From assembly GCA_964527595.1 (NCBI GenBank), contig CAZGPI010000001.1:81145-145144 (forward strand): a stretch of DNA of 64,000 bases, in the 5' to 3' direction. The position numbers were made by a program, and so were the translations under genes. Positions 390-60,723 of this stretch are shown here, one piece after another (position 1 is the stretch's first letter; every line of letters starts with the position of its first letter). This DNA comes from an uncultured Pseudomonadota bacterium (GTDB lineage Bacteria; Babelota; Babeliae; Babelales; RVW-14). The notes below the pieces were generated by a model. The model worked only from the letters and a program-made list of their open reading frames with translations, searched no databases and had not been told where the DNA came from.

Positions 390-2003
390 TTATTTATCAA
401 GCAGCGTACTTACCGTCGTGATTTGATCGTGTTTTTTCTCTCTCAGCTCCGCGTTCAAAACCTGCAGATTGGCATTCTCGGTAACAACTCGAGCCGAACC
501 CTTGAGCACATCGATTTGTTGGTATGCGCCAGTCAATTGCAACCCAAGTTCAAGATTATCTCGTTCTTTCTCTTCTAGCTTTACACCAAATTTACGGTTC
601 ATGCCTTCTTGAGTTTCATAAGCGACTTGCGCTTTATCAGCTTCGGCTTGTTGACGCAAACGATCAAGTTCAAACTCCAAGCGCTTTGCCGTCAATTGAT
701 GCTCATGTAGTTCCTTGCCTTGTTCTTCAAATTTTTGCTTGAATTGATTTTTTGTGGAATTTTTTTCTTGGGTTACAACATCAACCATCGTGCGCAATTT
801 TTTAACCTCAACATCATTGTCGGTTGACGGAATCCCAACAGCAAGTTTGGTTACGGCGCTATCGACAATATCTTTAAAGCCGGGGTATGCCGACTTAACA
901 CGGCCAGTTACCTCATCGGCAACTTTGAGCACAAAGTTCCTAATCACCTGGCCGCTAAATCTAGACGTCGCCTCATTTTTTTGTGCAAATGCATTCAATT
1001 CATATAGCGCAAGTAAGCGAACCTTTTTGAGCTCATGATCACTAAGTTTTAAATTTTTGGCAACCTCAGTGAGAAACGTATCGGCTTTTCTTTGTGCTTT
1101 AACAATTTTTCTTAGCTTAATCTGTTTATTAACCACTTGATTATAATTTGGATCATCAACCTTTTGAGTTCCTCGTAATGTACGATCAAACCAAACTCGC
1201 TGATCATTGAAACGTTGTAAAAAATCTGGCAACTGTTCGGCGTCCTCGCCCTCCATTATGATCTGCTTCATAAGCAAGGTATTGGCATCAAATTCATTAC
1301 ACATCGCACGTCGCCACTCACGTGTTACATTATTCTTGTCCTTATCTAAACCATTCGCCAAACCAGGCTCAACTTGCATATCTTCACGATGCTGATGGGA
1401 CAGTCGACGAATAATCGCATCTTCGCGTTTCTTTTTACGTAATTTCAGTGATTCTTCATCGGCCTTATTGATAATATCAATGACCTTGAAAGCCGCATCT
1501 TTTTTAAGCTGAATAGCCTCTTTTTCAATTTTTTGAGCTACAGCCGCCGCTTGCTCCGATGCTTGCTTGAAAAGCTTATCGGTCTGTTGCTCGGCTCGCT
1601 CTCGAATTTTTTTAGCCTCAAGCTCAGACTCTTTCTTAAGTTGTTTTGCTCGATCTTCAATATCTGCCTTGAGATTAACTATCGATTTTTCAGCTGCCTG
1701 CTTTAAAGAAGAAACTTTAGAGTCAACATCCGATTCAAGCCGCCTGGCCGTTTCTTCAGCCTCTTGAACCAATTGGTTAACGCGCGGACTACTTGCAACC
1801 TCAACACCCTCAAGATCTGCCGTAACTTTAAATTTATCTTGCCCTGGTCGATATCCTTCTGGCTGATAAATCTCAGGCTGATTTTCTTTGAGCATTTCTT
1901 CGGGTCCCGGCATATAGGATTTGCCAGCACCCAAACACATAGTCATCATAATCATCAAGCACAAAGCCTGATTTACGCGACGGAAAAAACATGTATTCTT
2001 CAT
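390..2003 (-). CDS. exported coiled-coil protein, function unknown
   Basis: 537-aa ORF with ATG at 2003 preceded by TAGGAAA. It has an N-terminal basic plus hydrophobic leader (ALCLMIMMTMCLGAG). Long Glu/Lys/Ala/Gln-rich heptad-like stretches occupy both ends. I recognise no enzymatic motif. Confidence 0.6.
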   Translation of the reverse strand: MKNTCFFRRVNQALCLMIMMTMCLGAGKSYMPGPEEMLKENQPEIYQPEGYRPGQDKFKVTADLEGVEVASSPRVNQLVQEAEETARRLESDVDSKVSSLKQAAEKSIVNLKADIEDRAKQLKKESELEAKKIRERAEQQTDKLFKQASEQAAAVAQKIEKEAIQLKKDAAFKVIDIINKADEESLKLRKKKREDAIIRRLSHQHREDMQVEPGLANGLDKDKNNVTREWRRAMCNEFDANTLLMKQIIMEGEDAEQLPDFLQRFNDQRVWFDRTLRGTQKVDDPNYNQVVNKQIKLRKIVKAQRKADTFLTEVAKNLKLSDHELKKVRLLALYELNAFAQKNEATSRFSGQVIRNFVLKVADEVTGRVKSAYPGFKDIVDSAVTKLAVGIPSTDNDVEVKKLRTMVDVVTQEKNSTKNQFKQKFEEQGKELHEHQLTAKRLEFELDRLRQQAEADKAQVAYETQEGMNRKFGVKLEEKERDNLELGLQLTGAYQQIDVLKGSARVVTENANLQVLNAELREKKHDQITTVSTLLDK

Positions 2004-2296
2004 TTTCCTACCCGCTCGTTACCCACCCAAAAATTTTACGTTTGCGTTTATTTCTGCTGTTGCAACTTCCTTTTTTATTCTCCATGTAAGCTATTTCTAT
2101 TTTTAGTTTAATGGATTTTTAAAAACTAATTCAACTAAAATACTCTTTTTCCAAACAAACGCCGTCAAAATGCTCGCATCACCTATCGCTAATAGCCCAA
2201 AAAATTCATGCTTTGGCTAGATTCTTGCACCACCCCGCTACAATTTTTTAAAGTAAGAGGAGCATTTATTGATCGTTTTTTACGCAAAGGGGAGAG

Positions 2297-3673
2297 ATGG
2301 AACAAAAAAACAGACATTTTTTATGGTTGGCTTTGTTGTGTATAGGTCTTGGAACCGCAACATGGGCAACCCGCAAGCCGATTCTTACTTTTATAGGCAA
2401 AACTTTTCAAAACCATGAACAACAGATAGAAAAATCGGATGAATGGATAACCGTATTCGTTCACGGAACCTTTGGTTGTTACTTTGGACTCCTCAGCCTT
2501 CCATCGGTAATCACCGATACCGTTGGCAAAACGTTATACAAAAAACTTGTTGAGTCAAAACGTAAAGATCCGGCCAATTTTCTTGATCAGGCAATATTAC
2601 AACGCGGATTGATAAAAGTTCAACCAAGCTACGACCTTCATGTAACCAATGGACAAAGATTTTCGGCATATCCGTTGGCCCAGGCATTTCAGGATATCTC
2701 TAAATATAGTTCTCCTGGCCAGAGCAGTGATACCTTTTACACATTTGGCTGGAGTGGGTTATTAAGCCAAAAGCAACGGCGCGTTGAAGCCGTTCGTTTT
2801 TACAATTCCTTAAACTCTGAACTCGAACGCTACCACTGTATTGGCAAACACCCTAAAATTAGGCTTGTTGCCCATAGCCACGGAGGAAACCTTTGCCTCA
2901 ATTTCGGCGCTATAACTGAAATACTTTCATTATCAACCTATGACAATATAGATAACACAACACCAGACGCTGGCACCAATGAATCACTTACCACTATGCT
3001 TAACTATATTAAAAAACTTCCAAACAAAGAAAGCGTTGCTTATGCAAAGAAGCTTAAGCACCTTGACCATGTCCCGACAACCTCTATTACCATCGACGAA
3101 TTAGTGCTGTTTGGTACGCCGGTTCAAGTTGAAACCGAACCATTTTACTTTTCACCAACATTCAAAAAGATATATCACTTTTATTCAGAAGGGGATGCTG
3201 TCCAGGCAATTGACTCTATTAGCACAAAAAAAAACAGCAACCAAATAATTAATCGAACTACGGAAAATCTACCGCTGGCTCGAGCATTTCCTGATCTTGT
3301 TCAGTGCAAAATCATTATGAATCACCACCGTAAAACTAAATTTCGTAAAAACAAAAGCGTCGATTTTTATAAACAATATGACCTGGGCCATAAAGACTTA
3401 TGGGCAATATCATGGCACCAAAGCAACAACCCTATCGCACCGCTCCCTGTCTTTGTACTGACACCGCTCATTATAGCGGCACTTAACAAACAACCAGCAC
3501 CCAATGATAACGTTGATATTAATATAAAAATCACCACGAAACATCTAAAAATTCAGGTATCACCGCACGACGAAGAAAAACTTTATACCCGCACGTCAAT
3601 TTCTCGGGACAATTTGGAAAAAATGAGAAAAAACCTCAGACGTTGGGACCCCTACCACACAGTGAATTTGTAG
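2297..3673 (+). CDS. membrane-anchored alpha/beta-hydrolase (lipase/esterase-like)
   Basis: The gene has an SD (AAGGGGAGAG) before the ATG and an N-terminal TM (FLWLALLCIGLGTATW). VFVHGTFG is an oxyanion-hole-like strand. VAHSHGGN is a nucleophile elbow (G/A-x-S-x-G). FYSEGDAVQ is a candidate acid residue. Confidence 0.6.
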   Translation: MEQKNRHFLWLALLCIGLGTATWATRKPILTFIGKTFQNHEQQIEKSDEWITVFVHGTFGCYFGLLSLPSVITDTVGKTLYKKLVESKRKDPANFLDQAILQRGLIKVQPSYDLHVTNGQRFSAYPLAQAFQDISKYSSPGQSSDTFYTFGWSGLLSQKQRRVEAVRFYNSLNSELERYHCIGKHPKIRLVAHSHGGNLCLNFGAITEILSLSTYDNIDNTTPDAGTNESLTTMLNYIKKLPNKESVAYAKKLKHLDHVPTTSITIDELVLFGTPVQVETEPFYFSPTFKKIYHFYSEGDAVQAIDSISTKKNSNQIINRTTENLPLARAFPDLVQCKIIMNHHRKTKFRKNKSVDFYKQYDLGHKDLWAISWHQSNNPIAPLPVFVLTPLIIAALNKQPAPNDNVDINIKITTKHLKIQVSPHDEEKLYTRTSISRDNLEKMRKNLRRWDPYHTVNL

Positions 3674-3800
3674 TTGTTTTACCGTTTTTTTGGTTTTCTT
3701 CTTTAAAATTCCTCATTTGCTCAATTATCTGCTATTATGGATGGGTATTTAAGAAGTTTTTATTTTGGGGTCAGTCACGAATTACCGTAAGGTGTATGAT

Positions 3801-59953: not shown

Positions 59954-59955
59954 CT

Positions 59956-59998
59956 CAAAAAAGAGAGCCGATGGTTAGACCATCGGCTCTCTTTTTTG
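59956..59998. terminator. bidirectional intrinsic terminator between the PASTA gene (+) and the RING gene (-)
   Basis: caaaaaagagagccgatgg-ttaga-ccatcggctctcttttttg is a 19-bp stem. Confidence 0.75.
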
Positions 59999-60015
59999 CT
60001 ATTAATTATTTTTTA

Positions 60016-60723
60016 CTATCGCCAGATAGCAGCTTCGGGTGAAGCCAGATGAAAAGCATTATCGAGTGCTGCCGGTAATCTTTCACCTATCGCTTTGCGA
60101 CATATTGGGCAATTATGAGCCGATGGAGCTCTTGATTCGAAACATTGTGTTATGCATTCAGTACAAAATGCATGGCCGCAAGATAAAACCGTTATTTTTT
60201 TTGTCTCTATCGGCTGATATAATGAATCTAAGCAAATACCACAATCATTAAACGTATAGTCAAACCCATCATCAGTAATGGTAATTGTATTAAGCGAAGC
60301 CGATTGCTCTGGGGATAAGATAACAGCAAAGGCTCCCAATTCTACCGGGCTCCTTGCTCGCAGGCTTCCTCGTTCATGATAAAGGCGGGCTTTGTCGGCT
60401 TCTAATGGATTTTTTATTTTCCACGTTCTTAGCGTGATGCCATAAAGAGCTGTTATTTCCTCAAAAAAATCTCCTGGCGCAAGCTGTTCAAAAGTTGCCT
60501 GGACTGGATCGCCAACGCGACTATAAGTACCATTTGAATTGCGTTCGAATGTTCCGCCTCGCTTTAAAGAAAAACAAATCATATCGCTGGATTTATTAAC
60601 AATCTTAATCGTTCCAGCAAGCGGAATGGCTCGCATTAAATATCCACCATCTACAACAAACATTGGCTTGCTAAAGCCAAATGATAAGAACGAAAACAGC
60701 GCAACCAATAATATTTTTTTCAT
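60016..60723 (-). CDS. exported C3HC4 RING-finger protein (putative E3 ubiquitin ligase mimic)
   Basis: CGICLDSLYQPIETKKITVLSCGHAFCTECITQCFESRAPSAHNCPICRKA fits C-x2-C-x17-C-x-H-x2-C-x2-C-x14-C-x2-C (nt 60100-60243). The ATG at 60723 is preceded by AGAGG and gives the leader MKKILLVALFSFLSFGFS. The track start at 60771 is a TTG. Confidence 0.8.
   Translation of the reverse strand: MKKILLVALFSFLSFGFSKPMFVVDGGYLMRAIPLAGTIKIVNKSSDMICFSLKRGGTFERNSNGTYSRVGDPVQATFEQLAPGDFFEEITALYGITLRTWKIKNPLEADKARLYHERGSLRARSPVELGAFAVILSPEQSASLNTITITDDGFDYTFNDCGICLDSLYQPIETKKITVLSCGHAFCTECITQCFESRAPSAHNCPICRKAIGERLPAALDNAFHLASPEAAIWR

Follow-up and report, generated by a model that had tools for sequence, protein, structure and literature searches.

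A candidate +1 methionine rule for Sec-type leaders of eukaryote-like proteins in Dependentiae

In Bacteroidetes, the substrates of signal peptidase I (SPase I) follow the Q-rule, in which Gln occupies position +1 and is converted to pyroglutamate (PMC5837995; PMC10653852). A comparable over-representation, of Met instead of Gln, is found directly after the predicted SPase I site of Sec-type leaders in a 64,000-nucleotide stretch of DNA from an uncultured bacterium (assembly GCA_964527595.1, contig CAZGPI010000001.1, positions 81,145 to 145,144; hereafter the window) and in loci related to it. As in the Q-rule, the preference is lineage-specific and becomes visible only when the leaders are aligned at the cleavage site, and the +1 residue is proposed to protect or stabilise the mature N-terminus. 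In contrast to the Q-rule, the Met occurs in about a third to half of the leaders, which belong to an effector-like class, while resident envelope proteins lack it. A +1 rule that covers most SPase I substrates, housekeeping envelope proteins included, is not what is found here. The Met furthermore stands where leaderless homologues have their start codon. The Q-rule also comes with an N-terminus-converting enzyme, glutaminyl cyclase, whereas no partner enzyme was identified for the Met within the loci examined.

The LeuRS of the window shares 87% identity with its counterpart from an uncultured metagenome-assembled genome (MAG) and 73% with that of candidate division TM6 bacterium GW2011_GWF2_38_10, which places the window in Dependentiae (TM6). 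This phylum consists of obligate intracellular parasites of protists. Signal peptides are predicted on 79 of the 126 ankyrin proteins of Babela massiliensis (PMC4378268), and are reported on 44% of all coding sequences and 78% of the ankyrin proteins of Chromulinavorax destructans (PMC6561590). Both belong to the same phylum and concern the same protein class. The published Dependentiae genomes report only the presence of signal peptides on most eukaryote-like proteins, and this applies to the Babela paper and to the signal-peptide and secretion passages of the Chromulinavorax paper; those passages make no mention of the +1 residue. The word "methionine" was not found in the Babela paper, in the Q-rule papers, or in the survey of Enterobacterales discussed below. 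Within the open-access literature, a +1 Met rule of Dependentiae is apparently undescribed: signal peptides on their eukaryote-like proteins are already known, and what appears to be new is the lineage- and class-specific Met at +1 of a Sec/SPase I leader.

A survey of Enterobacterales describes families with both leader-bearing and leaderless members, the gain of signal peptides by acquisition of a whole N-terminal segment, and a prevalence of signal-peptide losses in endosymbionts (PMC5952966). Unlike those endosymbionts, the host-dependent lineage studied here carries a very large leader-bearing set. The survey describes no retention of an old initiator Met at +1 and no conservation of such a residue. 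A more distant comparison is offered by the PEXEL motif of Plasmodium (RxLxE/Q/D), which is cut by plasmepsin V and marks proteins for the host cell. Its processing site also lies just past the signal sequence, and the second residue of the new N-terminus is acidic or polar. The likeness is an analogy only, as PEXEL is eukaryotic and involves another protease and another motif.

Met junctions in the window and in related loci

The Met junction is a trait of the lineage beyond the window and recurs across several Dependentiae lineages. Eight related loci (L005, L007, L009, L011, L013, L015, L016, and L017) were obtained via orthologues of two window proteins, a ribonucleotide reductase (RNR) barrel-domain protein and a cyclin. 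From these, 49 Sec-type leaders were curated in addition to 21 from the window, and all 70 consist of a basic n-region and an uninterrupted hydrophobic core of about 10 to 20 residues at the extreme N-terminus. At the junction, 33 of the 70 have a small residue and then Met (11/21 in the window, 22/49 in the eight loci). The background is 1.9%, the frequency of Met in the mature parts, and the 11 window cases correspond to a binomial P of 3.6e-9 with three candidate cleavage sites allowed per protein. The recurrence is thus non-random, as an earlier note on the window, made from its letters alone, had supposed. That note proposed to test for an enrichment of Met at +1, which is seen across the window and the eight loci: with a -3/-1 predictor that is blind to Met, Met is the commonest +1 residue (19/70 vs 1.9%, P=4e-17). 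The same predictor gives 5/21 for the window only (P=3.6e-5) and 14/49 for the independent loci only (P=2e-13). In locus L015, 10 of 13 leaders have a Met junction.

The residues around the Met resemble an ordinary SPase I site. At 33 of 38 junctions, the -1 residue is A (18), S (8), G (4), T (2), or C (1), and the -3 residue is mostly I, A, L, V, or C. The +2 residue is E or D in 14/38. The families that carry the junction Met are those with cytoplasmic or eukaryotic relatives. Outside the window they include F-box (CNA/MAKA, where the slash marks the predicted cleavage position), WD40 (CFS/MEQS), UCH protease (LLS/MKRT), ankyrin (AFA/MQLP), PLD-like (VFA/MEQS), and methyltransferase (LGA/MKRN) proteins. 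Across the curated loci, window included, the Met is absent from two DegP proteins, Skp/OmpH, a polysaccharide deacetylase, GH20, and lipoproteins. The envelope-type proteins of the window that were previously listed without it (the Deg proteases, the lipobox proteins, a phosphatase pair, and the products of 28608-29375 and 40910-42220) indeed have none.

As a control for the pipeline, metagenome loci of other lineages, about 700 kb in all, were retrieved with the RNR alignment; their RNRs are mostly leaderless. Among open reading frames (ORFs) of at least 150 residues, the control loci contain 31 SPase I-type leaders in 528 ORFs, one of them with +1 Met, and the Dependentiae-type loci contain 62 in 180 ORFs under the same automatic pipeline, 15 of them with +1 Met; the comparison is small, with 31 control leaders and a Fisher P of 0.017. 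At least two Dependentiae-type loci (L032 and L042) remained in the control set, and the lone +1 Met case (L068) comes from neither. The share of SPase I-type leaders as such, 62/180 in the Dependentiae-type loci vs 31/528 in the other lineages, is in line with the 44% of Chromulinavorax.

In the window, the earlier note had named 14 Met codons at or near the junction, and all of them are in-frame ATGs at the coordinates given (Table 1). Ten of the proteins were said to have a K/R-containing n-region, a hydrophobic core of 12 to 20 residues, an Ala, Ser, or Thr, and then Met, and all ten read in this way. These ten leaders have no L-x-x-C ahead of the Met and no RR motif, and are therefore neither lipobox nor twin-arginine leaders; the true lipobox proteins of the window (6269, 42319, and 42986) are distinct from the Met-junction proteins. 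A type IV pilin (class III) leader was rejected, as the hydrophobic segment lies ahead of the Met, and what comes after the Met is polar or acidic. A shared mobile leader cassette was rejected as well, since an all-vs-all local alignment of 14 upstream and leader regions gave long, gapped, low-identity matches only.

Four more proteins had been described with the Met 2 to 4 residues further in, which is correct in part. The Met at 34656 lies at about +4, the one at 50651 follows Gly, and the one at 60661 follows FSKP, but the Met at 1911-1913 is not homologous to a junction Met. The orthologues P0392 (LCA/MPQPG) and P0393 (LGA/MTPAG...SMPGPEY) carry +1 Met, and their comparison with the window copy (ORF 390-2003, x390) leaves a Gly at +1 in the latter and assigns its Met to a downstream MPGPE motif. 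To judge from this alignment, the window copy has lost its junction Met. For the RING-finger gene (60016-60723), the true start is the ATG at 60721-60723 (MKKILL, AGAGG upstream) and not the TTG at 60771. Two labels given earlier were not confirmed: no Pfam ankyrin match was found for the "ankyrin-like" 38306-38920, and a Pfam and PDB sequence search of the "Josephin-like" 53034-54497 gave no support for that name, only an NZF zinc finger. This finger (NZF/RanBP2) lies at residues 72-99, and its best PDB matches are TRABID/ZRANB1.

Table 1. Leaders, junction Mets, contrasting proteins, and export-related genes of the window. A slash marks the predicted cleavage position.
Feature	Position	Strand	Remarks
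NZF/RanBP2 zinc-finger protein, ORF 11517-12776	leader 12699-12776 (GTG start), Met 12696-12698	-	..MALVNAA/MIDD; AAGGAGG 4 nt upstream of GTG
HDAC11-type deacetylase, ORF 12928-14046	12928-12993, Met 12991-12993	+	..TIATIYS/MEQP-LPIVY; leaderless homologues start at equivalent position
Hypothetical protein, ORF 14050-14565	14482-14565, Met 14482-14484	-	..ISPCFS/MFPD; GGAGG upstream of start
Ankyrin protein, ORF 16630-17082	17005-17082, Met 17005-17007	-	..YNTIFT/MTDM
RNR barrel-domain protein, ORF 17258-19141	17258-17332, Met 17330-17332	+	..TMPMVA/MEQA
Ankyrin protein, ORF 22640-23170	22640-22717, Met 22715-22717	+	..PIMINA/MPSA
Ankyrin protein, ORF 23178-24338	23178-23267, Met 23265-23267	+	..LAFLSA/MESQ
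Hypothetical protein, ORF 38306-38920	38306-38374, Met 38372-38374	+	..SGSIFA/MERE
PHO80-like cyclin, ORF 45123-45830	45768-45830, Met 45768-45770	-	..LTTLQS/MINP
NZF-containing protein, ORF 53034-54497	54402-54497, Met 54402-54404	-	..TQYIQAA/MPEF
Hypothetical protein, ORF 50540-51064	50540-50653, Met 50651-50653	+	..VDYVNAGG/MFSS; Gly at -1, or cleavage VNA/GGM
ORF 34143-34736	34656-34736, Met 34656-34658	-	..SVILA/RSF-MPRI; Met at about +4 from likely cleavage site
RING-finger protein	60661-60723, Met 60661-60663 nearby	-	MKKILLVALFSFLSFG/FSKP-MFVV
ORF 390-2003 (x390)	leader 1911-2003	-	..MCLGA/GKSY-MPGPEE; Gly at +1
Contrast: DegP-type protease	6906-8483	+	..SLATTLDA/TNKD, no junction Met
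Contrast: second DegP-type protease	51112-52791	-	no junction Met
SecF	24877-25791	+	Sec/SRP export context
FtsY	34755-35648	-	Sec/SRP export context
S49/SppA peptidase	31346-32449	-	Sec/SRP export context

Translation of the leaders from their own starts

The leaders are translated from upstream starts that are preceded by Shine-Dalgarno (SD) sequences. An SD-like motif (score at least 3) is present at 51 of the 70 upstream (primary) starts and at none of 39 junction ATGs. Even ordinary internal Met codons have such a motif more often (42/400, 10.5%). The mean local RNA folding energy is -2.55 kcal/mol at primary starts, -5.0 kcal/mol at ordinary internal Met codons, and -6.1 kcal/mol at junction ATGs, and the RNA at the latter is much more structured than at primary starts (P=9e-8). 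The individual SD sequences pointed out before (AAGGAGG ahead of the GTG at 12776, GGAGG ahead of 14565 and 54497, and AAGAGG ahead of 45830) are all present, with nothing comparable at the junction ATGs. A codon-by-codon alignment of the RNR leaders from L007 and L009 has no indels and shows 10 identical codons, 4 synonymous changes, and 12 mostly conservative replacements. The SD sequences at the upstream starts and the in-frame conservation in orthologues bear out the claim that the leaders are not artefacts of ORF extension.

That the true start is nevertheless the junction Met, with the leaders as chance frame extensions through T-rich DNA, is scarcely credible. Hydrophobic signal-like peptides are indeed common in wrong-frame ORFs of DNA with about 40% G+C, and of the 48 signal-like N-termini that the window yields over all six frames, roughly half belong to small spurious ORFs. 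However, strong and correctly spaced SD sequences precede the upstream starts and not the Met, and every leader has the form MK(K)-hydrophobic-small. Orthologues moreover retain the leaders as such, showing synonymous changes but no frame breaks, and the pipeline gives a single such case among the 528 control ORFs.

Public gene calls sometimes follow the junction Met. In the RNR homologue P0126 (L017:5941-7791), an in-frame leader, MKKSLISFFLLVTVLRNGCP, with a G-rich SD sequence lies upstream of the public gene call, and the calls for P0124 and P0131 also begin at the junction Met or inside the leader. P0126 was considered as a leaderless RNR nested in the leader clade; this was rejected, as the leader is intact and in frame. 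Because the leaderless call is an artefact, P0126 cannot be used as evidence for leader loss. Annotation of these genes in the databases is thus inconsistent, and a gene caller that starts at the junction Met removes the leader and hides the export signal.

The third reading offered in the earlier note was dual initiation, in which the junction ATG serves as a second in-frame start and yields a leaderless cytoplasmic isoform besides the exported pre-protein. This reading is disfavoured by the junction ATGs, which have neither SD-like sites nor open RNA structure; their SD frequency lies below, and their folding is no more open than, that of ordinary internal Met codons. Dual initiation would account for a codon that is strictly ATG, and it would be sensible for RNR, normally a cytoplasmic enzyme. 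In-frame internal starts that remove the signal sequence are documented for speA, bamA, ivy, and yghG of Escherichia coli (bioRxiv 10.1101/520783), and there, too, an in-frame ATG near the end of the signal sequence could yield a non-exported isoform. The junction ATGs differ from these in their missing SD and open-structure signatures. The choice of the junction Met by public gene callers, as in P0126, also fits dual initiation. On the other side, no Val or Leu variants (GTG or TTG codons) occur at +1 among the exceptions, a cytoplasmic isoform has no obvious use for ankyrin, cyclin, F-box, or UCH proteins, and dual initiation would not require placement exactly at +1. It is retained as an unlikely alternative because SD-independent initiation exists in these genomes, where about a quarter of the primary starts have no clear SD sequence.

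Several specific forms of internal initiation were rejected. SD-driven initiation is contradicted by the SD counts and the RNA folding, and an internal promoter that would give a leaderless mRNA by the lack of a -10-like consensus upstream of the junction ATG, where position -11 is C in 20/39. A Kozak-like context (purine at -3, G at +4) is explained by the Ala, Ser, and Thr codons at residue -1 and the Glu, Asp, and Gly codons at residue +2.

Origin and retention of the junction Met

The position of the Met matches the start of leaderless relatives in two families. Leaderless HDAC11 members begin M-x(1-3)-K-LPIVF, and the Met of the window protein (MEQP-LPIVY) lies at the same place. Homology in this protein had been said to begin about 5 residues after the Met, which is nearly so; the family homology (LPIVY motif) begins 4 residues after it. 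Among leader-bearing members, the Met is kept in P0010 (FPA/MAEK-LPIIF), P0011 (ESA/MREK-LPIVF), P0080, and P0092 and is lost in P0003 (LPA/QSEK-LPIVF). With the window HDAC as query, GTDB genome contigs yielded no relative. In the RNR family, leaderless members begin 2 to 19 residues ahead of a Y[HR]S motif. The junction Met falls within this range in most members of the clade of the window protein (clade A); the window copy and P0133 have it about 14 to 20 residues from the motif, and in several members of clade B the distance reaches up to about 40. A neighbour-joining tree of 117 RNR homologues, a distance tree without support values, places the leader-bearing members in two clades nested among leaderless ones. 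Because the leaderless HDAC11 and RNR starts match and the leader-bearing RNRs are nested, the junction Met would be the old start codon of a leaderless gene. These comparisons support an ancestral start codon, the first reading of the earlier note, as the probable origin of the Met.

The test of conservation is confined to four families (RNR, cyclin, x390, and HDAC), because a tblastn search with 17 window leader proteins against all fetched loci matched the cyclin orthologue only. In the 24 leader-bearing RNR homologues, the +1 column is Met in 20 and has an entropy of 0.90 bits, and all other columns from -10 to +8, including -1 and -3, range from 2.0 to 3.5 bits. The catalytic domains of these proteins are 45-75% identical, the flanks of the Met are scrambled, and the Met stays adjacent to the leader even where the conserved domain lies 8 to 40 residues away. 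Among 1.8 billion representatives, two further bacterial cyclins with leaders were found (P0242, IYA/MIE; P0244, GYT/MDA), both with the Met at 41-42% identity. Together with the x390 orthologues, the conservation of the junction in orthologues, another check proposed beforehand, is thereby seen in three families.

Two RNR paralogues with leaders occur in assembly GCA_964446935.1, to which L009 and L017 both belong. At +1, P0123 has Ala and P0126 has Met; the two copies may reflect either true paralogy or a bin of mixed origin.

If the Met were a neutral relic, a functionless and decaying fossil start codon of genes that were recently extended by a leader, its match to the leaderless HDAC11 and RNR starts and its occurrence mainly in families with cytoplasmic or eukaryotic relatives would follow directly. 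Cases in which the Met is lost and the leader kept (P0123, IFA/A; the window x390, LGA/G; P0003, LPA/Q compared with FPA/M in P0010) point the same way, as do proteins whose mature part begins a few residues before the Met. Neutral decay, however, would not hold the cleavage site exactly against the Met, nor leave it as the most conserved N-terminal column of the RNRs amid scrambled flanks or preserve it in cyclins at 41-42% identity. The presumed old SD sequence is gone in every case, and the ATG survives although any change to it is non-synonymous. A passive fossil is accordingly improbable. Since the Met is conserved and leader-adjacent while the former SD sequence is gone everywhere, purifying selection on the +1 Met is the simplest reading of the alignments.

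A dedicated sorting or processing motif unrelated to ancestry has a similarly low probability. Here, [small]-M-[E/D] would be read by a modifying enzyme, a lineage-specific paralogue of signal peptidase, or a step of secretion across the outer membrane, and would send effectors on to the host in the manner of PEXEL in Plasmodium or of Gln with glutaminyl cyclase in Bacteroidetes. The exact conservation of Met at +1 and the frequent E or D at +2 agree with such a motif, as do its presence in effector-like and absence from resident envelope proteins and the high share of up to 10/13 leaders in L015. Yet this reading would leave the agreement with the start positions of leaderless relatives to coincidence, the motif is missing from many leader proteins of the effector-like type, and no candidate partner enzyme was identified in the loci, with no genome-wide search made. 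The more general form of the second reading in the earlier note, a lineage-specific motif at +1, is upheld by the exact placement after the -3/-1 motif, the conservation of Met between diverged flanks, and the occurrence in several Dependentiae lineages.

The best reading of these data, to which an even chance may be given, is that leaders were grafted onto the old start codon and that the Met was kept by selection as the mature N-terminus, as a Dependentiae "M-rule". Leaderless eukaryote-like or cytoplasmic-type genes (HDAC11, RNR, cyclin, ankyrin, F-box, WD40, and UCH) would have been recruited by joining a leader directly ahead of their former start codon. Translation would begin at the upstream SD-preceded codon and give an ordinary Sec-type pre-protein with a basic n-region, a hydrophobic core of 12 to 20 residues, and a c-region ending in [I/L/V/A/C]-x-[A/S/G/T], which would be targeted to the Sec translocon. 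SPase I would subsequently cut after the small -1 residue, at a predicted position immediately ahead of the Met. Because the leader is joined directly at the old start codon, cleavage would restore the complete ancestral protein including its initiator Met. The Met would then be retained by purifying selection as the mature +1 residue, often with E or D at +2. From the leaders, we infer that the Met-junction proteins are exported.

Why Met was kept is a matter of guesswork. Acidic residues just past the cleavage site favour Sec export, and N-terminal Asp and Glu are destabilising in the eukaryotic cytosol via the Arg/N-degron pathway. As a guess, the Met might provide a host-like, non-destabilising N-terminus that caps the acidic early mature region in the host cytosol. 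A more far-reaching proposal, put forward tentatively and with less confidence than the grafting itself, is that [small]/Met-[Glu/Asp] is a processing signature of a large class of host-directed proteins, which signal peptidase would release with a host-like initiator-Met N-terminus. The Met would then determine onward secretion or survival in the eukaryotic cytosol, for instance by evading N-degron pathways without loss of the acidic early mature region that favours Sec export. Such a signature would be a bacterial counterpart of PEXEL-like host-targeting N-termini and a second phylum-specific +1 rule after the Q-rule.

Several points weigh against the grafting and retention of the Met as a rule. 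The sample consists of about 250 kb of loci that are tied to few query genes and come mostly from MAGs instead of whole genomes, and the cleavage sites are predicted from a crude -3/-1 rule and inspection rather than by SignalP. At 5 of the 38 junctions, the -1 residue is unacceptable (P three times, F, and E), and there the mature protein would begin a few residues ahead of the Met. In other lineages, HDAC11 homologues with a leader are mostly without the Met. Some eukaryote-like leader proteins (RING, IBR, and LRR) and the RNR orthologues P0123, P0127, and P0128 do not have it either, so that the proposal that the Met marks eukaryote-like exported proteins stands as a tendency and not as a strict rule. 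Finally, it is not obvious what Met offers that Ala, Ser, or Thr would not, and the selective reason remains a guess. Because these residues would serve equally, the Met may instead be recognised specifically by a modifying enzyme, by a paralogue of the peptidase, or during secretion across the outer membrane.

If the grafting and retention of the Met hold true, the +1 Met would offer a simple signature by which the effector-like secretome can be told from resident envelope proteins, and direct evidence of gene recruitment for export, with the leader added exactly at the old start codon. It would also be a concrete determinant that can be tested in cleavage, secretion, and stability.

Genomic context and further leader-bearing proteins

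The window has a G+C content of about 40% and about 59 genes, in which housekeeping functions (GyrB, LeuRS, YbeY, RF, Rho, TsaD, SmpB, SecF, FtsY, NrdD, and NrdG) are mixed with eukaryote-like ones (an HDAC11-type deacetylase, a PHO80-like cyclin, three ankyrin, two NZF zinc-finger, and one RING-finger protein). Identical copies of its proteins were found only in a 318-kb NCBI contig and in a few short Logan contigs. Genes for SecF, FtsY, and an S49/SppA peptidase show that the Sec/SRP export route is encoded in the window itself. In the closest relative found, whose LeuRS is 87% identical (L004:4019-12720), the genes downstream of LeuRS and YbeY differ wholly from those at 11029-21000 of the window. 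The block of NZF, HDAC, ankyrin, and RNR genes is absent from L004:4019-12720, and the effector-rich segment of the window is therefore not syntenic with this relative.

The RNR barrel-domain protein (homologues P0121-P0240) has a conserved Sec-type leader in two separate clades, and for this reason appears to be exported. In a related low-GC metagenome locus, a leader-bearing RNR (LNLNS/MNEY) adjoins a thymidylate synthase (..EQQYLDLVADILKSGNEKQDRTGVG; L051:1993-2955, + strand) with a signal-like leader, MINMHGFRLFIYSSLFLINLYSTSITG/LPN, which makes it a second enzyme of nucleotide metabolism that looks exported. With RNR and thymidylate synthase apparently exported, the parasites might manipulate the nucleotide pools of the host from outside their own cells. 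An anaerobic NrdD/NrdG pair (45840-48202) is encoded in the same window as the leader-bearing RNR.

Further candidate host-directed proteins of the ubiquitin system are the leader-bearing RING-finger protein (60016-60723) and a DUF1796 papain-like peptidase (15848-16597). Two tandem PTP/DSP-like phosphatase paralogues (43826-44467 and 44521-45159) have Cys-rich leaders (..FFCCCFFNTHA/S and ..SFCCCFSAQA/S, respectively) and no junction Met. Rho (25920-27509) carries a low-complexity N-terminal extension of about 110 residues that precedes its Rho_N domain. Several window leaders (e.g. 50540-50650 and 38306-38371) contain T6-T8 runs that stem from Phe codons; as a speculation, these could be slippage sites that switch export on and off.

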